Positions 8,725-19,465 are shown, counted from the first letter of the stretch. The stretch: DNA of 31,524 nt from Gemmatimonadota bacterium (GCA_039591655.1 JBDHDE010000029.1:1-31524); one strand, 5' to 3'. The notes: generated from the letters alone by a model not told the origin. Program-made: numbers and translations.

Positions 8725-9414
8725 GTGACGGACGAGCGGCGCAAGACGTTCAGCTTGGCCGACCTCAACCGGCGGCTCACTCCGTCGGCCGTAGCCCTCA
8801 TCCTCGCCAACCTCGTACCGCTCTACGGCGTTGCCCTCTTGGGGTGGAGGGTCTTCCCCGTCGTCCTCCTCTTCTGGTTCGAGAACGTCGTCGTGGGGTT
8901 CTACAACGCGCTCAAGATCGGCTTCGCCCGCCCGGGCGACGTTGGCCGCTGGATCGCCAAGGTCTTCATGATCCCGTTCTTCCTGTTCCACTACGGCATG
9001 TTCACGTTCGTGCACGGGATCTTCGTGCTGGCGCTGTTCGGGAGCGGAATCGTAGACATGGACGGCGGCCCCAGCGTCGCGTGGTTCCGGAGTGCGCTGG
9101 TGGCGGCGGGCGTCACCTGGGCGGCCGTCGCACTGTTCGTGAGCCACGGATTCTCGTTCGCCCACAACTACATCGCACGCGGTGAGTACCGCCGGGCCAC
9201 GCTGGAGAACCTGATGAAGCAACCGTACTCCCGGGTGGTGGTGCTGCACGTGGTGATCATCGCCAGCGGGTTCCTGGTGATGGCGCTCGGAGCACCGGTG
9301 CTGGGCCTCGTGCTGTTGGTGCTGCTCAAGACCGGGGTGGACGTGAGCGCGCACCTGAAGGAGCGGGACAAGTTCGCTACCCCCAACTCTTTGCCGCCGG
9401 CGGGTTCTTCCTGA
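8725..9414 (+). CDS. Membrane protein, DUF6498-like
   Basis: LILANLVPLYGV, FWFENVVVG, FFLFHYGMFTFVHG and PYSRVVVLH patterns; multiple TM helices; overlaps the dnaE2 3' end by 38 nt. Confidence 0.8.
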   Translation: MTDERRKTFSLADLNRRLTPSAVALILANLVPLYGVALLGWRVFPVVLLFWFENVVVGFYNALKIGFARPGDVGRWIAKVFMIPFFLFHYGMFTFVHGIFVLALFGSGIVDMDGGPSVAWFRSALVAAGVTWAAVALFVSHGFSFAHNYIARGEYRRATLENLMKQPYSRVVVLHVVIIASGFLVMALGAPVLGLVLLVLLKTGVDVSAHLKERDKFATPNSLPPAGSS

Positions 9415-12400
9415 GCTGCTTGAGGAACGTGTAGGGCGAGCGCCCGCCGGCGCCGGGCTGGTCGGACACACCTGTGGGCAGCGCTGCCATGAGCTTGGTC
9501 CGCCGGTAGCCGTGTCCGTCGGTGAGTCCCCTGGGTGGCCCGCCCGACTGCCGCAGCTTCAAGGGCCGCACCTCCTTGGCGATCACGTTCACCGTCCCGG
9601 CGTCTTTGGCCAGCGTCCCCAGGATCCACAGAAACGGCTCGCCCCGCACCGCCACCCGATCGCGCTCGTAGATTTCGGGTCGCACGATGGCGTTGATCAT
9701 ACCGGCCTCGTCCTCCATCAGGATGAACGTGTAGCCGTTAGCCGTCTCCGGGCGCTGGCGCGCCACCACGAGCCCGGCCACTTCGATCTCGGCTCCGTGC
9801 TCCAGCTCCTCGAGCTTATCGCTGCACAGCACCTTTGGAGGTAGTGTGTCGCGCAGCATCGAGAACGGGTGGCCGCTGGCCGAGAACCCCAGCACGTCGT
9901 ACTCGGCCACCAGCCGCTCGTCGCTCGAGATGCCGCCGAAGCGCAGGTGCTCGTACGGGTGTGTGAGGGGAAGCTCCAGCTGGCGGCGCACCCGGGCCGG
10001 GTTGGACGGCTCGCTCTTGGGCGGGAGCCACAGCCCCACCTGCCACAGGAGCTCGCGCCGCGTCAACCCGAAGGAGTCGCAGCCGCCCACCCAGACGAGG
10101 TTCTCGATGGCGTCCCGGGAGAGCTTACGCGGCGCCCGGCGCACGAGCTCGCCGAGGCTCCGGTACGGCCCGCCCTTCTCCCGCTCGAACACCGCCTCCT
10201 CGGCCACGTCCCAGCCGCAGTCCCGGATGAACCCGAGCCCGATGCGGATGCAATTGTCCTCCACGGTGCAGTAGACGTCGCTCCGGTTGATGTCGGGCAA
10301 CTCGATGTCCACGCCGTGCCGCGCCGCGTCCCGTCCCAGGGCGTCCAGCGAGTAGAACCCCATGGGCTGGTTGTTGAACAGCCCGGTGTAGTACTCCACC
10401 GGGTGGTAGTAGCGCAGCCACGCCGACTGGTAGGCGAGCAATCCGAATGCCGCGGCGTGGGACTTGGGGAAGCCGAACGCTGAGAACGCCACCACTTGCT
10501 CGAACACCCTCCGGGCGGTGGGGTCCGAAACGCCGCGCCTGCGCGCCCCTACCAGGAACTCCCCCCAGAAGCCCTCCATGAGCTCCCGGGAGCGGCGGCG
10601 GCTCATGGCGCGGCGCAGCGCCTCGGCCTGCCCCGCGGTGAAGCCGGCGAGCGCTTGGCAGACCTGGAGCACCTGGTCCTGATAGATGATGACGCCCAGG
10701 GTCTCACCGAGGGACTCCTTGAGCAGCGGGTGGTCCACAGGGGGCTCGTAGGGGAGCCCGCGCTCCCGAGCGTGGCGCTCTGCTTCTCTGCGGCGCACGT
10801 AGGGGTTCACCGCCCCGCCCACGATGGGGCCGGGCCGCACAATGGCCACCTCGACGGCGAGGTCGTGGAGGTCACGCGGCCTGGTGCGGCGGATGATCTG
10901 GATCTGGGCACGGCTCTCGATCTGGAACAGGCCCACCGTATCGCCGGCGCAGATCTGGTCGTAGACCTTCTCGTCCTCGAAGTCGATGCGGGAGAGATTG
11001 GGCGGCGCGCCTTCCTTCTTGGCGACGAGCTCGACGCACTCCTCTACGGCCGAGAGCATCCCCAGGGCCAGGAAGTCGATCTTGATGAACCGGGCGTCGT
11101 CGCAGGAGTCCTTGTCCCATTGACACACCACGCGGTCGGGCATGGCCGAGCGCTCCAGCGGCACGAGCTCCACCAGGGGCCGGCTCGAGATGATCATCCC
11201 GCCCACGTGCTGCGAGACGTGCCGCGGTAGCCCGGCGATCTCCTCGGCCAGGTCACACAGGTCGCGCCACAGGGGAGCCTTGGTGCGCCCCGCGAACCCG
11301 GGGAGCTTCTCCAGCTCTTCCCTGAGCGCTCCCGCCGAGCGGTGCTCGGCGAGCTTGGCCACCTGCTCCAGCTCACCGATGGGGAGGTCGAGAGCCTTGC
11401 CCAGCTCCCGCACCGCCGAGCGCAGGCGGTACGTGGGAAAGGAACAGACCAGTCCGGTGTGCTCGTCGCCGTAGCGCTGGTACACGCGACGGATGAGCTG
11501 TTCGCGGATCTCCCGGGGAAAGTCGAGGTCGATGTCGGGGATCGACGCCAGCGTCTCGTTCAGGAACCGGCCCAGGAAGAGCCGGTTGCTCACCGGATCG
11601 ATGTGGGAGAGGCCGAGGAAGTAGCAGATGATGGACGAGACCGACGAGCCGCGACCCCGGCCGGGTAGCAGGTTGCCCGCGGCACGCCGCGTTCCCCGGC
11701 GCACGTCCGCTCCAACCTCCCGGGCCAGCTCGAACAGATCGTTGTAGACCAGGAAGAAGCCGCACAGCTGGTGGTGCTCGACCAACCGTAGCTCCTCTTC
11801 CAGACGACGCTCGGCTTCGGCACGGTTTGCTGAGTCGGGTGGGTAGAGCTCCTCGAGCTTCACGCGGCACAGCTCGGCGAGAGCCTGCGAGGCCGTCTGC
11901 CGCTCCGAGCCACGGAAGTTGGGGAAGGTGTATCCCAGGTCTTTGGTCAGATCGAACGCCCGGCAGCGCTCGGCGATTGCCACCGTGTTGGCGACGGCGT
12001 CGGGCCGGTCGCGGAACAGGGTGGCCATCTCATCGGGCGGTCTGAGATAGAACTCGCTGTTGGACCTCCGCACGTCGTGGGAGGCGTCCAGCGTGGTGCG
12101 GTGCCGGATGGCGGTGAGGGCGTCGTGCAACCGGTGTCCCTCGCGCCGGTGGTAGTGCACGTCTCCCGTCGCCACCACGGAGAGGCCGCTGCCGTCGGCG
12201 ATGTCCGCCAGGGCCTTGGTGAGGTCACGGTCTCCCCGCACGTGATTGCGCTGGAGCTCCACGAAGAAGCGCTCGCGGCCGAACAGCGCCCGGCAGCGCT
12301 CGGCGAGGCGTCGGGCCGCCGTGAGCCCTTCCCGCGCCAGCACCGTGGGCAGCAATCCGTTGCGGCACCCCGAGAGCACGATCAATCCCTCGTGCCGCGC

Positions 12401-12736
12401 CTCCAGCGAAGCGAAGTCCAGGCGGGGATCGCGTCGGTCCTCCCGACCCAGATGTGCCTCGGTGATCAAGCGGCAGAGGTTGGCGTACCCTTCAGGCGTC
12501 TCGGCGAGGAGGGTGACGTGGGAGCCGTCGAGCAGGGTGACCTCGGCGCCGGTAATGGGTTGCAGGCCGAAGTCCCTCGCCGCCCGCGCGAAGGCCATGG
12601 ACCCGTACACGCCGCTGTGGTCGGTGACGGCCAAGGCTGCGTACTCCAGGCCCGTCGCCTCGAGGACCAGCTGCTCGGGCAACGCGGTGCCGTCGAGGAA
12701 CGAGAAAGCGGAGTGGCAGTGGAGCTCGACGTACAT
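9377..12736 (-). CDS. dnaE2: Error-prone DNA polymerase III alpha (DnaE2/ImuC)
   Basis: 1119 aa; PHP YVELHCHSAFSFLDG, GRGRGS, PDIDLD, KIDFLALG, FQIESRAQ, GFPKSHAAAF, NNQPMGFY, OB-fold RQRPETANG; last gene of an imuB-type cassette. Confidence 0.95.
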   Translation of the reverse strand: MYVELHCHSAFSFLDGTALPEQLVLEATGLEYAALAVTDHSGVYGSMAFARAARDFGLQPITGAEVTLLDGSHVTLLAETPEGYANLCRLITEAHLGREDRRDPRLDFASLEARHEGLIVLSGCRNGLLPTVLAREGLTAARRLAERCRALFGRERFFVELQRNHVRGDRDLTKALADIADGSGLSVVATGDVHYHRREGHRLHDALTAIRHRTTLDASHDVRRSNSEFYLRPPDEMATLFRDRPDAVANTVAIAERCRAFDLTKDLGYTFPNFRGSERQTASQALAELCRVKLEELYPPDSANRAEAERRLEEELRLVEHHQLCGFFLVYNDLFELAREVGADVRRGTRRAAGNLLPGRGRGSSVSSIICYFLGLSHIDPVSNRLFLGRFLNETLASIPDIDLDFPREIREQLIRRVYQRYGDEHTGLVCSFPTYRLRSAVRELGKALDLPIGELEQVAKLAEHRSAGALREELEKLPGFAGRTKAPLWRDLCDLAEEIAGLPRHVSQHVGGMIISSRPLVELVPLERSAMPDRVVCQWDKDSCDDARFIKIDFLALGMLSAVEECVELVAKKEGAPPNLSRIDFEDEKVYDQICAGDTVGLFQIESRAQIQIIRRTRPRDLHDLAVEVAIVRPGPIVGGAVNPYVRRREAERHARERGLPYEPPVDHPLLKESLGETLGVIIYQDQVLQVCQALAGFTAGQAEALRRAMSRRRSRELMEGFWGEFLVGARRRGVSDPTARRVFEQVVAFSAFGFPKSHAAAFGLLAYQSAWLRYYHPVEYYTGLFNNQPMGFYSLDALGRDAARHGVDIELPDINRSDVYCTVEDNCIRIGLGFIRDCGWDVAEEAVFEREKGGPYRSLGELVRRAPRKLSRDAIENLVWVGGCDSFGLTRRELLWQVGLWLPPKSEPSNPARVRRQLELPLTHPYEHLRFGGISSDERLVAEYDVLGFSASGHPFSMLRDTLPPKVLCSDKLEELEHGAEIEVAGLVVARQRPETANGYTFILMEDEAGMINAIVRPEIYERDRVAVRGEPFLWILGTLAKDAGTVNVIAKEVRPLKLRQSGGPPRGLTDGHGYRRTKLMAALPTGVSDQPGAGGRSPYTFLKQLRKNPPAAKSWG

Positions 12737-12743
12737 CTGCCTA

Positions 12744-13031
12744 TTACGGCATCTGCATGAACCACTGCCGGGTCTTCAGGTCTTCGAACAACACCATGTG
12801 CCCTCCTCCCTCCAGCACGACCTCCACGTATTGCCGGGTGATTGGTTCTCTCCACCACTCGTCGTTGATGCGCCAGGCCTCGAGGATCTCCTCGACCAGC
12901 CGCCTGTCGTCCTCGTCTTCCCCGATCGCAAAGGGGAAGCCCCGATCATCGAGCTCGACGGTCACGGGCCGCGGCACGTTCAAGGCTCGAAGTCGATCAG
13001 CGCGTAGCGGCGTTCGGGTATGCGTGACCAT
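12744..13031 (-). CDS. Small protein resembling the ImuB C-terminal domain (DUF6504-like), 95 aa
   Basis: ATG 13031: MVTHTRTPLRADRLRALNVPRPVTVELD...EAWRINDEWWREPITRQYVEVVLEGGGHMVLFEDLKTRQWFMQMP. The RIxxxWW...RxY...LF...WF pattern parallels ImuB C-termini; sits between imuB and dnaE2. Confidence 0.8.
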   Translation of the reverse strand: MVTHTRTPLRADRLRALNVPRPVTVELDDRGFPFAIGEDEDDRRLVEEILEAWRINDEWWREPITRQYVEVVLEGGGHMVLFEDLKTRQWFMQMP

Positions 13032-14443
13032 GGCTGCACCTCGATGATGTGGTAGAGCATCGGACGCTTGAGTCGAGTCTGGATCTCGTGGGCCGCGGCG
13101 TGGAGCGCGCGGCGGCGGCCGGCCCGGGCCGCGGCGCTGGCGTCCCGGGCGAAGAGTTGGAGCTCGTCGGTGCCCCGGGCGAAGGCGGTGAACTCCACCG
13201 CGAGATGCTCGACCGCCCCCGCGGGCGGTGCGTGCTCCAGGCGCACCTTGAGCGGGGCGGCAATGCGCTCGCGGTCGGCCGAGGGGTCCTTGAGGGTGGC
13301 CCCGGTCATCCAGGAGGCGCCGTGCTCCAACGTGGCGCGCACGCGCACCACGTGGACGCGCCACCCGGTGCGCCGCGGGTGGGAGAGGGCCCGCTCGATG
13401 AGCTTGTCCAGCGCGTGGGCGAGCATGGCCCGGTCGGCCACAGGCGTCAGGAAGTCGAGAGATGCCACGATGGGCTCGGGGCGCTCCCTGCCGGTGACCG
13501 GATCGGTCACGTTCCCCGTGGCGAGCTGCCACGCCTGGCGTCCCTCGCCGCCGAACTGGGAGACGAGGGCCACCTCGGGGAGCCGGGCCACCTGGCGCAG
13601 CGTCTTGAGTCCCAGCTGCCAGAGGCGGCGATGCGTGTCGGGAGAGACAGGGAGGACCGCGACGGGTTGGTTGGCGAGGAACTCGCCGCGCTCCTCATCG
13701 GGGACGACTACGGCCTCGCCCGGTTTCGCCCGGGTGGCCGCGACCCAAGAGAGGAACTTGCCACGGCCCCAGCCGAGGCGCACGACCGAGGAAAGGGAGC
13801 GGGGCCGCTTCCCGTTTCCCGCTTCCCCCTTCCTGAGGGGGTGAGCGGGGTGGAGCAGCCCCGGAGAGGTTGTTACGGAGCGGCGGTTCGGTCGCGTTTG
13901 TGCCCTATCGCTCCGCTCGTGCGCCGCCGCCGTCCCGCCACCGCATATGTTGAACGCTTCAGGCGTCCCCAAGGTTGCAATGCACGTTGCGCGTTGCACG
14001 ACCTGCGCTATCGCTTCCAGCTGTGATGCCGGCTCTCCATAGAGCCCTTCCAATCCGTCCACTCCAACAAACACCCGCCCCAGCTCTGCGGGCTCGATGA
14101 CCGGACTGGCCTCGCCCAGCGCCAGCAACAGCCGGGAGAACTGCTCGTCGTAGTAGACCGGATCCGGCTCGCACAGCGTGAGGGAAGGGCAGAGGCCGAT
14201 CGCCTGGCTCACGGTCATGCCGGTTCGCACGCCGGCGCGCCGGGCGAAGGGCGAGACCTGCCACACCCGGCGGGTGTCGTCCGGTGAGAGCAGGGCGGTG
14301 GGCGTCGTCGCCAATTCCGGACGGCGGCGCTCCTCGCACCGCAGGGCAAAGAGGGGGATCCAGAGACACACGGCGAGGTCGCTGGAAAGTGCGGCCCTGC
14401 TGTTGCAGGGCCGACCGTTGCCGCCTGAGAGAGAGCGCGTCAT
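12980..14443 (-). CDS. imuB: ImuB-like inactive Y-family polymerase
   Basis: IMS-like N-terminus (CLWIPLFAL, ARRAGVRTGMTVSQAIGLCPSL) with catalytic acidic motifs replaced (GRVFVGVDG), HhH LWQLGLKTLRQVARLP, little-finger region, SRIPERRY tail; ATGA overlap with the upstream gene. Confidence 0.85.
   Translation of the reverse strand: MTRSLSGGNGRPCNSRAALSSDLAVCLWIPLFALRCEERRRPELATTPTALLSPDDTRRVWQVSPFARRAGVRTGMTVSQAIGLCPSLTLCEPDPVYYDEQFSRLLLALGEASPVIEPAELGRVFVGVDGLEGLYGEPASQLEAIAQVVQRATCIATLGTPEAFNICGGGTAAAHERSDRAQTRPNRRSVTTSPGLLHPAHPLRKGEAGNGKRPRSLSSVVRLGWGRGKFLSWVAATRAKPGEAVVVPDEERGEFLANQPVAVLPVSPDTHRRLWQLGLKTLRQVARLPEVALVSQFGGEGRQAWQLATGNVTDPVTGRERPEPIVASLDFLTPVADRAMLAHALDKLIERALSHPRRTGWRVHVVRVRATLEHGASWMTGATLKDPSADRERIAAPLKVRLEHAPPAGAVEHLAVEFTAFARGTDELQLFARDASAAARAGRRRALHAAAHEIQTRLKRPMLYHIIEVQPWSRIPERRYALIDFEP
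13805..13825. repeat. Heptamer tandem triplet (CCGYTTC)x3
   Basis: CCGCTTC CCGTTTC CCGCTTC inside the imuB insertion. Confidence 0.6.
13981..14001. repeat. Heptamer tandem triplet (TGCRCGW)x3
   Basis: TGCACGT TGCGCGT TGCACGA at the other edge of the imuB insertion. Confidence 0.5.
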
Positions 14444-15534
14444 CGCGCCCCCTCTCCATCGGCGGCGGATGATCTCGGGGAAATGGGGCAGTGCCGCCCG
14501 CCGTCATCTGTCGCGGAGAACAGGCTCAGTTGCGCCGCACGCCCGGCCTGCTGCGCCGACTCCTCCTCGTCGGTGTCGCCCTGAGGGATTCCGTACTTGA
14601 GCGAGAAGCGCTGAAAGCGGCGCTTGGCTGCAGCGGCGTACTCCTGCGGCGCATTCCACGTGTCGTGGTAAGCCGCTCGATACCGCCGGGCGAGATCGGG
14701 GAAGTGCTGTTCCACGATGGGCAGGAAGCGCCGGCGTGAGTCGGGGTAGAGGCGCAGCGTAATGGGTGTGATGAACTTGGCGCCCGCCGCGCTGGCCGCC
14801 TCCATGAGCGCATCGACCTGAGGTACCGTGTCGGTGATGCCGGGGAGGATCGGGGCCACGATGAGTCCGGCGCGGATCCCTCCCCTCACGAGCTGCTCGA
14901 GGGCCCGCAGCCGGGCGTGGGGCATGGGGGAGCGCGCCTCGAACAGCCTGATCACCCGGGCGTCGACGCTGACCAGCGAGATGTACACCGACAGCCAATG
15001 CCGGCGCGAGAGATCCTGCAGCAGGTCGAGGTCGCGACAGACCAACGGGCTCTTCGTGATGACCCCGATGCGAATCCCGCGCTCGCCGCGCAGCCGGGCG
15101 AGCACTGCGCGAGTCACCTGATACTGGCGCTCCGCCGGTTGGTAGGGATCGGTGGCGCTGCCGATTAGGATCGTCTGGAGGCCGTCGAGGGCCGTGCGGC
15201 GCCTGAGGCGGTTGAGGTCGCGGTCCAGTGCCGCCAGGACCGCGCTGCGGGACTTGATGAAGATGCGATGCTCGAAGGGCTCCAGCCCCTCCGGCCGCTG
15301 GAAATCTGTGAACTCGGCTGCGGTGATGCGTCCATCGTCCCGCGCCCGCTCGACCACGTAGCGGTGCGTGTAGCGGGCGTAGCAGTAGGTGCACCCGAAC
15401 TCGCAGCCCACGTAGGGATTGAGGGACCAGAAGCCCATGCCGGTGGACTCGGGCGAGTTGATGACCGAGCGCACCGAGAGCTCGGCGAACTTGGTGCCGC
15501 GGTGGCGCTGGTCGAGGACTGGGAGGGCCGGCAT
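14440..15534 (-). CDS. SplB-like (Rv2578c-type) radical SAM DNA-repair-associated protein
   Basis: SLNPYVGCEFGCTYCYARY (CxxxCxxC), ILIGSATDPYQPAE, ITKSPLV, APILPGITD; C-terminal QLSLF. Confidence 0.9.
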   Translation of the reverse strand: MPALPVLDQRHRGTKFAELSVRSVINSPESTGMGFWSLNPYVGCEFGCTYCYARYTHRYVVERARDDGRITAAEFTDFQRPEGLEPFEHRIFIKSRSAVLAALDRDLNRLRRRTALDGLQTILIGSATDPYQPAERQYQVTRAVLARLRGERGIRIGVITKSPLVCRDLDLLQDLSRRHWLSVYISLVSVDARVIRLFEARSPMPHARLRALEQLVRGGIRAGLIVAPILPGITDTVPQVDALMEAASAAGAKFITPITLRLYPDSRRRFLPIVEQHFPDLARRYRAAYHDTWNAPQEYAAAAKRRFQRFSLKYGIPQGDTDEEESAQQAGRAAQLSLFSATDDGGRHCPISPRSSAADGEGAR

Positions 15535-15726
15535 CTACCCACACCTTCCCCACCCGCACGCCAGGCAGAACTCGCAGCCGGAGGCATGAACCAGCGGCGC
15601 ATCGCAGTCCGGGCAGGTGGCCGGTCCCAGCTGCGGTGCCTGCCGCGGGCAATGATCCGTAACCCGTTGTGGAACGGGCACTTCGTAGATGCGACGCCAA
15701 CGCATCTTCGGGATATATTCGGGCAT
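15535..15726 (-). CDS. Small Zn-ribbon protein resembling the C-terminal tail of class II ribonucleotide reductase
   Basis: CPDCDAPLVHASGCEFCLACGWGRCG* ending; stop TAG directly abuts the radical SAM ATG. Start is either ATG 15726 (63 aa) or ATG 15705 (56 aa). Confidence 0.7.
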   Translation of the reverse strand: MPEYIPKMRWRRIYEVPVPQRVTDHCPRQAPQLGPATCPDCDAPLVHASGCEFCLACGWGRCG

Positions 15727-15757
15727 CTAATACCGAATATACCCCGAAAACATACCG
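15707..15757. promoter_or_regulatory. Candidate repressor operator: CCGAA-N6-CCGAA repeats in inverted arrangement
   Basis: TTCGGGATATATTCGG (15707-15722) and CCGAATATACCCCGAA (15733-15748) are reverse complements at 15/16; a further partial unit CCG at 15755-15757 keeps the 11-bp period. Confidence 0.65.
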
Positions 15758-15896: not shown

Positions 15897-17066
15897 TTGA
15901 GTCCCACCGCACCGCCACTCACGAAGATCCCGCCGGCCGTCATCAACCATCCGCTTGTCCGGACGCTTACCGTCCTGGCTCTGCTGTTCGTGTTCCTGCT
16001 GGGCGTGAACGGACTGGGTGACGGGTTCAAATCGCTGGGACGGGACTTCGTCACGTCGTTCTTCGCGGCGACCGAGAACCCCTTCATGGCGCTCATCGTG
16101 GGCATTCTGGCGACCACGCTGGTGCAGAGCTCCTCGGTCACCACGTCGCTCATCGTGGGGCTCGTCGCAGCGCCGGAGAACCCCCTTCCCATCGCCAATG
16201 CCGTCCCCATGGTCATGGGGGCGAACATCGGGACCACGGTGACCAACTCGCTGGTCTCCCTGGCGTATATGGGCCGCAGGGAGGAGTTCCACCGCGCCTT
16301 CTCGGTGGCCACGTGCCACGACTTCTTCAACTACATGGCCGTGATCGTCCTGCTGCCGTTGGAGTTGATGACCGGCTACCTGCGAACGACCGCGACGTAC
16401 CTGGGTTCCCTGGTCACGGGCGTCGGCGGCATGGAGTACGACAGCCCCATCAAAGGGGCGCTGAAGGCGACGTGGAAGCCGATCAAGGATGCGGTCCACG
16501 CGGTCACCGACTCCCAGGGAACCCAGGCGGTCCTCCTCATCGGCATATCTGCCGTGCTGATCTACATCGCCCTCATGCTGCTGGTGCGGGTGATGCGACA
16601 GGTGATGCACTCGCGGGTGGAGGCGATCGTCACGCAGGGGCTGTACAAGGCCGCCCCCTTCGCCATCCTGGTGGGTATCCTGGTGACGGTGATGGTGCAG
16701 TCCAGCTCCATCACAACGTCACTGCTGGTGCCGCTGGCGGGTGCGGGGCTCATCACGCTGGCACAGGCGTTCCCCGTCACCATCGGAGCGAACATCGGGA
16801 CCACGGTCACCGCGATGTTGGCCGCCCTCGCGGTCACGGGGGTGAACGCGCAGTTCGGCGTCATCATCGCGCTGGTGCACTTGCTGTTCAACTTGAGCGC
16901 GACCCTGCTGATCTACCCTGTGGAGCGGGTCCGCCGTATACCGCTCACCGCGGCGACCAAACTCGCGGACGTTGCCGTGCGGTCCCGCCGGTGGGCATTC
17001 TTCTATGTGGTGATGTTGTTCTACGGCTTGCCGGCGCTCCTCATCGCGCTCGACGAGCTCCTCTAG
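15897..17066 (+). CDS. Na+/phosphate cotransporter (PNaS/NptA family)
   Basis: Two repeats of VQSSSxTTS...GANIGTTVT; start codon uncertain (TTG 15897). Confidence 0.92.
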   Translation: MSPTAPPLTKIPPAVINHPLVRTLTVLALLFVFLLGVNGLGDGFKSLGRDFVTSFFAATENPFMALIVGILATTLVQSSSVTTSLIVGLVAAPENPLPIANAVPMVMGANIGTTVTNSLVSLAYMGRREEFHRAFSVATCHDFFNYMAVIVLLPLELMTGYLRTTATYLGSLVTGVGGMEYDSPIKGALKATWKPIKDAVHAVTDSQGTQAVLLIGISAVLIYIALMLLVRVMRQVMHSRVEAIVTQGLYKAAPFAILVGILVTVMVQSSSITTSLLVPLAGAGLITLAQAFPVTIGANIGTTVTAMLAALAVTGVNAQFGVIIALVHLLFNLSATLLIYPVERVRRIPLTAATKLADVAVRSRRWAFFYVVMLFYGLPALLIALDELL

Positions 17067-17085
17067 GTGGTACCGGAGGCGACGT

Positions 17086-17784
17086 ATGCTTCGTGAACTG
17101 CTCAGCATCTTTCGGTCGGATCAGCCTCTGGCGGCTATGGGCGAGAACTTCGCCCAGATGCTCAAGCTGACGTATCAGATGACGCTCCAGGCGGGCGACG
17201 CGTACTTCGGCAAGTCGCGGAAGCCCGACTCCCGCACGCAGATCTACGAGCACGACGTTGAGGTGAACAAGCTGCAGCGGGTCATCCGCAAGCAGGTGAT
17301 TGCCCACCTCTCCGTCGCAGGCAACAGCGCGTCGCTCCCGTATTGCCTGCTGCTGATGAGCCTGGTGAAGGACGTGGAGCGACTGGGAGACTACGCCAAG
17401 AACCTGTCGGAGGTCGCGGAGTTGCGTCCCGATCCCCTCCCGGAGGACGAGCTCGTGGAGGAGCTCAAGGAGATCCGGGCAGGGGTCGAAGAAGCCTTTG
17501 TAGCGACGGCCGACGTGTTCGCCACGTCCGATCACGAGCGGGCCGTCACCCTGATCCAACAGGGGCGCGACGTGACCCACCGCTGCGACGCGCTGGTGGC
17601 TTCCGTGGCCCGCAGCGCTTACGATGCGGGCACGGCGACGGCGGTGGTCCTGGGGGCGCGATTCTACAAGCGCATCGGCGCCCACGTGCTCAACGTGCTG
17701 TCCAGCGTCGTGATGCCGCTGCACAAGCTGGACTACTACGACGAGAAGCTGTTCGAGAAAGAGGGATCGGCCGAAGGCAACTAG
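17086..17784 (+). CDS. PhoU-domain protein
   Basis: GGAGG RBS; EHDVEVNKLQ and KDVERLGDYAKNLSE PhoU-repeat motifs; degenerate second repeat FYKRIGAHVLNV. Confidence 0.85.
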   Translation: MLRELLSIFRSDQPLAAMGENFAQMLKLTYQMTLQAGDAYFGKSRKPDSRTQIYEHDVEVNKLQRVIRKQVIAHLSVAGNSASLPYCLLLMSLVKDVERLGDYAKNLSEVAELRPDPLPEDELVEELKEIRAGVEEAFVATADVFATSDHERAVTLIQQGRDVTHRCDALVASVARSAYDAGTATAVVLGARFYKRIGAHVLNVLSSVVMPLHKLDYYDEKLFEKEGSAEGN

Positions 17785-17816
17785 CCCGCACCCCAATCTC
17801 GTTGGGAGGCTGCTGA

Positions 17817-18431
17817 ATGCGGCTGCTACCACGGCAAGAGGAGTTCTTCGACCTGTTCGTCGAGGTGGCGACCCGCTCGCACGAGGCCGCCGGACACCTA
17901 CGGCAGCTGTTCGCGTCTTTGCCGGGGGGAATCGTCTACCACGTGGACGCGATCAAGCGGCTCGAGCACGAGGCCGACGAGATCACCCATGAGGTCGTCA
18001 AGCGGCTCGACCGCACGTTCATCACCCCCATCGACCGCGAAGACATCCACCTACTCGCCTCGGATCTGGACACGGTCATGGACCGGATCGATGGCACGGC
18101 GCGTCGGGCACAGATCTTCCGCTTGAGCCCACCGCCGGATGGCATCGCGCAGCTGTGCGAGCTGGTCGTGAGTATCACCCAGGCGACCGCCGAGGCGGTC
18201 GAGCAGTTGCGAAAGAAGCGCGACGTGATGCCCCACTGCATCGAGGCCAAGCGGCTCGAGGAGGAGGCGGACTCGGTTTACCACCTGATGCTGGGCCGGC
18301 TGTTCGATAACGAGCGCGACCCCATCACGCTCATCAAGTGGAAAGAGATGTTCGACAACCTCGAGCGGACGATCGACCAGTGTGACGATGTCGCGAACGA
18401 CCTCGAATCGATCGTGCTGAAGCACGCGTGA
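17817..18431 (+). CDS. DUF47 Pit accessory protein (PhoU-like)
   Basis: LEHEADEITH, TFITPIDREDI, LEEEAD, IKWKE motifs; GTGA overlap with pit. Confidence 0.92.
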   Translation: MRLLPRQEEFFDLFVEVATRSHEAAGHLRQLFASLPGGIVYHVDAIKRLEHEADEITHEVVKRLDRTFITPIDREDIHLLASDLDTVMDRIDGTARRAQIFRLSPPPDGIAQLCELVVSITQATAEAVEQLRKKRDVMPHCIEAKRLEEEADSVYHLMLGRLFDNERDPITLIKWKEMFDNLERTIDQCDDVANDLESIVLKHA

Positions 18432-19465
18432 TCCTCGAGTCTGTCTGGTTCGTCCTGGCAATCGTCGGGCTGGCACTCCTATTCGACTTCATCAACGGAT
18501 TCCACGACAGCGCGAACAGCATAGCGACCATCGTCTCGACGCGGGTGCTGTCGCCGTTCGTGGCGGTGGGCTGGGCGGCCTTCTTCAACTTCGTCGCGGC
18601 ATTCGGATTCGGGACGGCCGTCGCCAAGACGATAGGCAGCGGCCTCATCGACCTTTCGATCGTCGATCCGCTGGTGATCCTGGCCGGGCTCGTGGGAGCC
18701 ATCCTGTGGGATGTGATCACATGGTATTACGGGATCCCGTCGAGCTCTTCGCACGCCCTCATCGGCGGGTACGGGGGTGCCGCAGTGGCAAAGGCGGGAG
18801 TGACGGCGCTGATCATCGGAGGTTGGGTGAAGCCCATCGCCTTCATCCTCGTGGCGCCGCTGCTCGGCATGCTGCTCGGCCTGCTGCTCATGGTGGGGAC
18901 GGCCTGGACGTTCCGCCGGGCGTCGCCCCGGTCGGTGGACAAGCACTTCCGGAGGCTACAGCTCGTGTCCGCGGCGGCCTACAGCCTGAGCCACGGGACC
19001 AACGATGCCCAGAAGACGATGGGCATCATCGTGGGGCTGCTCGTGTCGTCACAGCACCTCTTCCGTGACTTCCCGATTCCGGCGTTCCACCTCACAACGG
19101 CGGATGTGATTCCGACGTGGGTCATCCTGTCGGCGCACGCGGCGATCGCTGCGGGCACGGCGGCTGGCGGCTGGCGGATCGTGAAGACGATGGGATCCCG
19201 GCTCACGAAGCTCAAGCCCGTTCACGGCTTCTGCGCCGAGACCGGCGGCGCGATTTCCGTGTTCCTGGCATCCGGCCTCGGCATCCCGGTCAGCACCACG
19301 CATGTCATCACGGGGTCCATCGTCGGTGTGGGGGCGGCACAGCGGTTCTCTGCGGTGCGGTGGGGGCTGGCCGGCCGGATCATCTGGGCCTGGATTCTCA
19401 CGATCCCTGTGTCGGCCGGCATCGGGGGCATCGTCTACCTGCTGCTGCACATCTTCATCCGCTAG
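18428..19465 (+). CDS. pit: Inorganic phosphate transporter (PiT family)
   Basis: NGFHDSANSIAT, GIPSSSSHAL, HGTNDAQKTMG, GIPVSTTH signatures. Confidence 0.95.
   Translation: MILESVWFVLAIVGLALLFDFINGFHDSANSIATIVSTRVLSPFVAVGWAAFFNFVAAFGFGTAVAKTIGSGLIDLSIVDPLVILAGLVGAILWDVITWYYGIPSSSSHALIGGYGGAAVAKAGVTALIIGGWVKPIAFILVAPLLGMLLGLLLMVGTAWTFRRASPRSVDKHFRRLQLVSAAAYSLSHGTNDAQKTMGIIVGLLVSSQHLFRDFPIPAFHLTTADVIPTWVILSAHAAIAAGTAAGGWRIVKTMGSRLTKLKPVHGFCAETGGAISVFLASGLGIPVSTTHVITGSIVGVGAAQRFSAVRWGLAGRIIWAWILTIPVSAGIGGIVYLLLHIFIR

Follow-up and report, generated by a model that had tools for sequence, protein, structure and literature searches.

Error-prone polymerase operons that lack imuA have been described in several papers. 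In the Kyrpidia tusciae type, an inactive Y-family polymerase (PolY), a standalone ImuB-C protein and the polymerase DnaE2 are encoded together in an imuA-less genome, with RecA presumed to substitute for ImuA (PMC6511836), and this assembly has been named DnaE2X-iPolY-ImuBC-RecA and modelled (PMC12926913). UV mutagenesis by imuY and dnaE2 in the imuA-less D. deserti, with the operon lexA-imuY-imuB-C-dnaE2, is reviewed in PMC8072749, while ImuB-C itself was defined in PMC3765255, which links it in operons to DnaE2 and to SplB-like radical S-adenosylmethionine (SAM) genes. We analyzed a stretch of 31,524 nucleotides (nt) from a Gemmatimonadota bacterium (GCA_039591655.1, JBDHDE010000029.1:1-31524; hereafter the window), in which an operon of five minus-strand genes encodes a six-cysteine peptide, a SplB-like radical SAM enzyme, an inactive PolY of the iPolY/ImuY type, a standalone ImuB-C-like protein and DnaE2 (Table 1). 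A sequence-only reading of the window had proposed an undescribed ImuA-less system. The same trio of polymerase genes without imuA is already published (PMC6511836; PMC12926913) and is mutagenic in D. deserti (PMC8072749), and the proposal that it is undescribed was not supported. We consider it likely (probability about 0.8) that the locus is a LexA-repressed SOS operon, in which the genes of the peptide and the SplB-like radical SAM enzyme form a head, followed by a mutasome of the known ImuA-less, split-ImuB type, for which RecA is the predicted ImuA substitute.

The window shares with the Kyrpidia type the operon of inactive PolY, standalone ImuB-C and DnaE2, a genome in which no imuA was found and, on a weak match, a possible RecA-NT-like C-terminal helix on PolY (PMC6511836; PMC12926913), and differs from it in the two additional upstream genes and in having no lexA in the operon. 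The D. deserti operon has the same three polymerase parts in the same order, no ImuA and SOS control, but it carries its own lexA, is listed in the cited part of PMC8072749 without a radical SAM or peptide gene, and was shown experimentally, whereas the window is known from its sequence. The imuA-imuB-dnaE2 cassette (DnaE2A) likewise combines a dead Y-family scaffold with DnaE2 and SOS control; the window has a split ImuB and no ImuA, and its DnaE2 falls into a clade apart, which lacks the SxDF[H/R] tail. No paper describing the five-gene order was found in our literature searches, which here and below covered abstracts and listings of an open library.

An imuA-less polymerase operon behind predicted SOS boxes

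Re-checking the sequence upheld the layout described in the sequence-only reading, with five co-oriented genes and four tight junctions. The stop codon (TAG) of the peptide gene abuts the start codon (ATG) of the radical SAM gene at 15535/15534, the radical SAM and iPolY genes overlap in an ATGA (14440-14443), the iPolY and ImuB-C genes overlap by 52 nt (12980-13031) and a gap of 7 nt (12737-12743) precedes dnaE2. As had also been described, neither imuA nor lexA lies within the operon; the lexA gene of this genome is located outside it, on contig C1.

The Y-family protein contains an IMS domain (E 2e-18), and its active site is disrupted. Where DinB has the SIDE motif, the window protein has ELGR, as do the most frequent variants in a set of 41 homologs, and the motif I aspartates were not seen in an alignment that is ragged at motif I. 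An ELQLF clamp-like motif is present at residue 427, and a RecA-NT-like helix occupies residues 443-463, the same place as in DinB. The two Y-family halves are separated by a low-complexity insertion of about 60 residues (window 13850-14000) that varies in length among relatives. The earlier label imuB needs correction, as the gene belongs to a split ImuB and encodes an inactive PolY without fused ImuB-C. The label DUF6504-like for the following protein needs qualifying: neither this protein nor its 38 homologs were recognized by Pfam, but it aligned with the C-terminus of a full ImuB (hhalign probability 84.5, E 7e-6), and there was a weak match to a protein annotated in RefSeq as "DUF6504 family protein" (36%, E 0.07). 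No hhalign match was obtained with a second ImuB. For DnaE2 the best model was PRK05672 (E 3e-280; 932.7 bits against a cut-off of 939). Its catalytic residues D401, D403 and D554 are intact and its C-terminus is S(K)SWG-like, not SxDF[H/R]. It groups in a clade of 21 iPolY-linked DnaE2s, separate from the ImuA-linked DnaE2s, with a Shimodaira-Hasegawa-like approximate likelihood ratio test (SH-aLRT) support of 100.

The sequence-only reading had suggested a search for imuA elsewhere in the genome. A profile made from the ImuA proteins of five relatives found none in the own assembly, which is 95% complete (best E 0.21), and recovered 11 ImuA loci of relatives at E <= 3e-30 as a control. In five relatives with the same operon no imuA was found either; the profile gave recA (E 1e-12 to 1e-14) and otherwise two weak matches (E 6e-4 and 7e-3). 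With a dead PolY, a standalone ImuB-C, an intact DnaE2 and no ImuA found, the trio is classified by its gene content and motifs as the published ImuA-less, split-ImuB mutasome type.

The operon is preceded by a direct repeat, TTCGG-N6-TTCGG, which replaced our first guess of a perfectly palindromic operator. Sites were scored with a position weight matrix (PWM) built from the sites of relatives. A second, inverted box lies over the first codons of the peptide gene and is present in many relatives. The box (TTCGG-N6-TTCG on either strand) occurs upstream of the radical SAM gene in 103 of 108 loci, after three loci with less than 400 nt upstream were dropped. The own lexA gene is preceded by the motif twice, and recA is preceded by it in 12 of 15 relatives, or in all 15 with a looser pattern. 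Seven sites in the own genome scored above 17, compared to 0-1 in two shuffles. From the box common to lexA, recA and the operon we infer that LexA binds TTCGG-N6-TTCGG, and the five genes likely form one damage-inducible, LexA-repressed operon. The promoter scan of the operon found no consensus sigma-70 site. The box resembles the alphaproteobacterial LexA box GTTC-N7-GTTC (PMC3323433) in being a direct repeat with an 11-bp period and a TTC core, and differs in its consensus; no description of it for Gemmatimonadota was found in the literature searches. Three boxes in the own genome (G000:C127:1386, C37:18862 and C20:18307, with scores of 30.9, 28.5 and 17.2) have, by eye, a small thioredoxin-like open reading frame (ORF), a TonB-type receptor and a glutamine synthetase as respective neighbours.

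Taken as a mechanism, DNA damage would lead RecA to trigger cleavage of LexA. The inactive PolY would dock on the beta clamp and bind RecA via its C-terminal helix, ImuB-C would bridge to the PHP domain of DnaE2, as PMC12926913 models for ImuB, and DnaE2 would copy across the lesion. The radical SAM enzyme would most likely work alongside, docking on the clamp by itself and attacking a DNA adduct via a 5'-deoxyadenosyl radical, and would meet the mutasome at the clamp without being a subunit of it.

Table 1. Features of the operon and its upstream region in the window
Feature	Position	Strand	Size or score	Remarks
Six-Cys peptide gene	15535-15726	minus	63 aa	
PA0069/Rv2578c-like (SplB-like) radical SAM enzyme	14440-15534	minus	364 aa	CxxxCxxC at 44/48/51
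Beta-clamp-binding-type motif QLSLF of radical SAM enzyme	14518-14532	minus	residues 335-339	disordered tail, pLDDT <50
Catalytically dead Y-family protein (iPolY/ImuY type)	12980-14443	minus	487 aa	IMS domain
Standalone ImuB-C-like (DUF6504-like) protein	12744-13031	minus	95 aa from own ATG	WRIxDEWW motif
DnaE2 error-prone polymerase	9377-12736	minus	1119 aa	PRK05672
SOS box 1 (TTCGG-N6-TTCGG direct repeat)	15732-15749	minus	PWM score 30.3	second best in genome
SOS box 2 (inverted)	15706-15723	plus	PWM score 27.7	over first codons of peptide gene
Predicted -10 TATATT	15741-15736			overlapped by box 1; read by eye
Predicted -35 TTGCAG	15763-15758		16-nt spacer to -10	read by eye
aa, amino acids; pLDDT, predicted local distance difference test.

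One radical SAM gene in front of different polymerase modules

Of 61 near relatives, 52 gave a match to the radical SAM protein, as did 111 of 151 genomes of the phylum. The survey of gene order covered 111 loci, made up of every non-self locus of the first set (51) and a choice of 60 from the second, and these were compared by targeted tblastn, as all-against-all ORF clustering was too noisy in high-GC DNA. As the sequence-only reading had expected of a genuine unit, the five-gene order is kept in close relatives. Because it is contiguous in 14 of the 111 loci, including seven of the eight congeners with enough sequence, the order is evidently not due to chance. At 72-87% identity over the four large genes, the operon is also found in named records, which are Gemmatimonadota.

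The module following on the same strand is of the iPolY type in 26 loci, imuA plus imuB in 15 and a third PolY type in 15; in 45 loci the radical SAM gene is followed for at least 5 kb by no polymerase gene on its own strand, and ten loci were too short. The one inspected example of the third PolY type also lacks the catalytic motifs, and by analogy with PMC12926913 this type may be gbDinB2-like. Peptide, radical SAM gene, imuA and imuB occur together in nine of the 111 loci, and in six loci of family f3 imuA lies 29-207 nt from the radical SAM gene. Sister families carry imuA-imuB-dnaE2 behind the same radical SAM gene, and splB presumably adjoins imuA-imuB-dnaE2 in Verrucomicrobia as well. 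The proposal that enzyme and peptide stand in ImuA's place did not hold, as the radical SAM gene precedes imuA-imuB in those 15 loci and the peptide does so too in nine. Since peptide, enzyme, imuA and imuB co-occur, the head does not appear to replace ImuA, and the operon is best described as new wiring of known parts with the peptide and the enzyme as add-on neighbours.

A tree of DnaE proteins (42 rows) contained three groups that match the three module types (SH-aLRT 100, 88 and 100), with two changes of module type, the smallest possible number; it was a quick tree with long-branch warnings, left out ORFs shorter than 700 aa or with fewer than 650 aligned residues, and includes kin that are not independent. 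The head is thus followed by DnaE proteins of three clades, which is most simply explained if it stayed constant while entire polymerase modules were exchanged. That the cassette of the sister families merely lost imuA is disfavoured, since the DnaE2s lie in different clades of this quick tree. The same DnaE2 type was found on a contig other than that of the radical SAM gene in three genomes (G019, G020 and G023), and in G018 it was present with no radical SAM match found. In L089 and L090 insertions separate the head from the polymerases, and a second box then precedes iPolY. The locus thus provides a natural experiment, with three mutasome types behind the same SOS-boxed radical SAM gene within one order.

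The enzyme and the peptide at the head of the operon

The presence of a SplB-like radical SAM gene at the head of the operon was confirmed. The two best models are the NCBIfam families PA0069 and Rv2578c (E 6e-54 and 6e-51), whose cut-offs the protein does not reach (183 against 360 bits and 173 against 430 bits), and it is therefore placed in a subfamily related to PA0069/Rv2578c. The predicted structure (pLDDT 86.6) is closest in fold to spore photoproduct (SP) lyase, with a Z score of 20.9 and a root-mean-square deviation of 3.3 over 269 residues at 15% identity, and the next protein had a Z score of 16.5. PDB sequence searches gave nothing meaningful, and only the fold search matched. With SP lyase and SplB-like COG1533 proteins the enzyme shares CxxxCxxC followed by Tyr, the fold and a LexA-type box; it differs from SP lyase in lacking a conserved fourth cysteine and in having a C-terminal clamp motif. 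Among 92 aligned enzymes only C44, C48 and C51 are conserved (92/92), and in every other column at most 13 of the 92 have Cys. In SP lyase a fourth cysteine is needed as hydrogen donor (Cys140; Cys77 in clostridia; PMC3467042), and the position matched to Cys140 by motif is T, S or G. Because it has no conserved fourth cysteine, the enzyme was not filed as an SP lyase; the SP lyase model TIGR04070 gave 22 bits against a cut-off of 400. LexA is known or predicted to target SplB-like genes (PMC3323433; PMC8565304), and a LexA chromatin immunoprecipitation peak lies at Rv2578c/Rv2579 (PMC3381160).

The disordered C-terminal tail of the enzyme contains QLSLF. Motifs of the form QL[S/D]LF bind the beta clamp. 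After 14 truncated loci were dropped, 97 remained; of these, 27 have a strict clamp-type motif at the C-terminus and 49 have one at either end, against a rough background of 23/1648. The C-terminal form is present in eight of eight congeners, four of 17 loci of family f2 and seven of ten from other orders, and strict QL[S/N]LF is common where the five genes are contiguous. The clamp motif on SplB-like SOS enzymes and the candidate Gemmatimonadota LexA box TTCGG-N6-TTCGG are both leads.

The peptide ends in CxxC-x9-C-x2-C-x2-C-x4-C (C38, 41, 51, 54, 57 and 62) and matches the last 34 positions (726-759) of the class II ribonucleotide reductase (RNR; NrdJ) model PRK08665 (E 2.9e-6). The only other match to the six-Cys pattern in the own genome is the tail of NrdJ on contig C17, which has the same Cys spacing; that of S. 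nassauensis NrdJ is nearly the same. For the NrdJ tail, zinc binding has been proposed for four of the Cys and electron shuttling for the other two, and the tail passes electrons into the active site (PMC5704485). The peptide therefore resembles a free counterpart of this tail, with the spacing CxxC-x9-C-x2-C-x2-C-x4/5-C at the extreme C-terminus, but it is a separate protein of 45-65 aa under an SOS-type box and lacks the rest of the CRD and the catalytic barrel. By analogy, and with slightly less than even odds, it may bind zinc and keep a redox-active Cys pair as the NrdJ tail does; otherwise it would be a structural or buffering zinc ribbon. No paper describing a free six-Cys peptide was found in the literature searches, and its function may be of relevance to the reductant used by class II reductases.

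The peptide gene lies directly upstream of the radical SAM gene in nine of nine congeners, 45 of 50 other f1 loci and 11 of 12 f3 loci (65/71 for f1/f3), and the pattern is absent there from f2 loci (0/17) and from loci of other orders (0/20), with a profile search recovering a peptide at or near the locus in a few cases missed by the pattern. The dN/dS ratio (nonsynonymous to synonymous substitutions) was 0.08 for 11 congeneric cores and 0.20 for 68 cores, values for which dN is biased down as the cores were chosen by the six-Cys pattern. Third codon positions vary most and all three stop codons are in use. These data indicate that the peptide is under purifying selection. Boxed, intact peptide genes also occur without a detectable enzyme in G136, G184 and G085 (95-99% complete), where a single-protein search agreed with the enzyme search, which had no positive-control genome. 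The same tail ends other unrelated-looking proteins, and free short homologs occur in other clusters, including a viral one. Because the boxed peptide stands without the enzyme and its tail ends unrelated proteins, it appears to be a genuine SOS gene that is retained independently. In most genomes with the peptide, a second match lies within a frame of about 850 aa. In G145 (L185:4411-4760), a small prophage-like ORF, which we take to be of a nuclease-type family, ends in the same six-Cys tail and has no SOS box.

Weighing the alternatives

Several observations weigh against the proposed RecA-using, LexA-repressed operon. Expression of the operon and binding of LexA are predictions from the sequence, and three of the seven strong boxes of the genome (C127, C37 and C20) adjoin no recognized SOS gene. 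The helix of iPolY matched RecA N-termini weakly (E 0.036, the best of 11 windows), and the label DnaE2X would rest on gene content, as the tree held no named DnaE2X sequence. The strict C-terminal clamp motif is found in only eight of 51 other f1 loci and in none of 11 f3 loci, where many enzymes end in looser Q-x-x-L tails, and the literature searches yielded no substrate for the PA0069/Rv2578c family. Finally, recA is absent from the own assembly. The DNA near recA in four congeners matches contig C148 up to the contig end and recA scored above the cut-off in 57 of 61 genomes, so that the missing recA is probably an assembly gap at the end of C148; loss of recA in the lineage was rejected on the same grounds. 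In two of these congeners (L186 and L189) recA has the opposite orientation relative to the same flanking block compared to the other two (L187 and L190), hinting at a local inversion.

That the mutasome cannot work without the radical SAM enzyme and the Cys peptide, which would take over from ImuA and connect radical lesion processing with translesion synthesis, is very improbable. Such a role would fit the tight junctions, the order kept in 14 of 111 loci and the clamp-type motifs on both enzyme and iPolY, as well as the strict QL[S/N]LF form being common in contiguous loci. However, the enzyme fold is unrelated to RecA/ImuA, 15 loci combine the enzyme with imuA-imuB and 45 show no polymerase gene next to it. 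DnaE2s of the same type are found on other contigs or where the enzyme is missing (G018, G019, G020 and G023), and the mutagenic operon of D. deserti, lexA-imuY-imuB-C-dnaE2, is listed with no radical SAM gene (PMC8072749). For the peptide, a dedicated role as partner of the enzyme, supplying in trans the thiol hydrogen atom or the electrons that SP lyase obtains from Cys140, is unlikely. The peptide is directly upstream of the enzyme gene in 65 of 71 f1/f3 loci with enough sequence, the enzyme has T, S or G at the Cys140-equivalent position and no conserved fourth Cys, and the NrdJ tail offers a precedent for shuttling electrons into an active site (PMC5704485), but the enzyme does without the peptide in 17/17 f2 loci and 20/20 loci of other orders. 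No single Cys that would compensate was found in the enzymes lacking the peptide, but their scattered Cys are more numerous (mean 2.0 against 1.0), and the boxed peptide persists where no enzyme was found. A complex prediction with enzyme (1-325), peptide (30-63), 4Fe-4S and Zn, run without controls, scored 0.00 and gave no answer.

Quite unlikely, too, is service to the own class II RNR as an SOS-induced extra shuttle or modulator that raises deoxynucleotide supply for translesion synthesis. The Cys spacing equals that of the own NrdJ tail, most peptide-bearing genomes have the second, ~850-aa match, the peptide is kept where the radical SAM gene is missing and electron transfer between NrdJ subunits was shown (PMC5704485); yet in that study NrdJ without its CRD did not regain activity when the CRD was expressed separately, the peptide lacks the ~150-aa remainder of the CRD and the own nrdJ has no box. 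That the peptide is a generic small zinc ribbon, a metal or thiol buffer or nucleic-acid binder without a dedicated enzyme partner, is possible though doubtful: the tail on the G145 ORF and on other unrelated-looking proteins and the free homologs in other clusters, including the viral one, speak for it, but the two Cys proposed as the non-zinc redox pair of NrdJ are kept in 68 of 68 cores, a count that is partly circular as the cores were selected for six Cys. The head could conceivably be a self-contained radical DNA-repair unit, with a clamp-docking SplB-like enzyme served in trans by a freed RNR six-Cys shuttle and acting at the clamp of whichever mutasome follows. This is unlikely, but if true would provide the first partner and mechanism for the widespread PA0069/Rv2578c-like SOS enzymes.

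Further observations around the locus

Several genes recur near the radical SAM locus in relatives. DUF72 genes are found in L045, L047, L050, L051, L052 and L054, mostly on the opposite strand and as a tandem pair in L045. A truncated-looking 3-methyladenine glycosylase I (tag) gene lies 3' of the radical SAM gene in L054, L062 and L073, in two of them between the PolY and DnaE genes. In G045 (L074:6845-7888) an integron integrase gene follows rSAM-imuA-imuB and precedes toxin-antitoxin-like genes (MazE, Fic), with dnaE2 about 20 kb away. In a Longimicrobiales record (L091:6899-7252) a standalone ImuB-C gene has a box of its own, and none of the remaining operon genes was matched within 7 kb of it.

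No terminator was found at the operon end by the promoter/terminator scan. The 3' end of dnaE2 (9377-9414) overlaps by 38 nt a convergent DUF6498 membrane-protein gene (8725-9414). On the other side, a divergent phosphate-transport cluster (Na/Pi cotransporter, PhoU, DUF47 and PiT; 15897-19465) shares the intergenic region of the operon.

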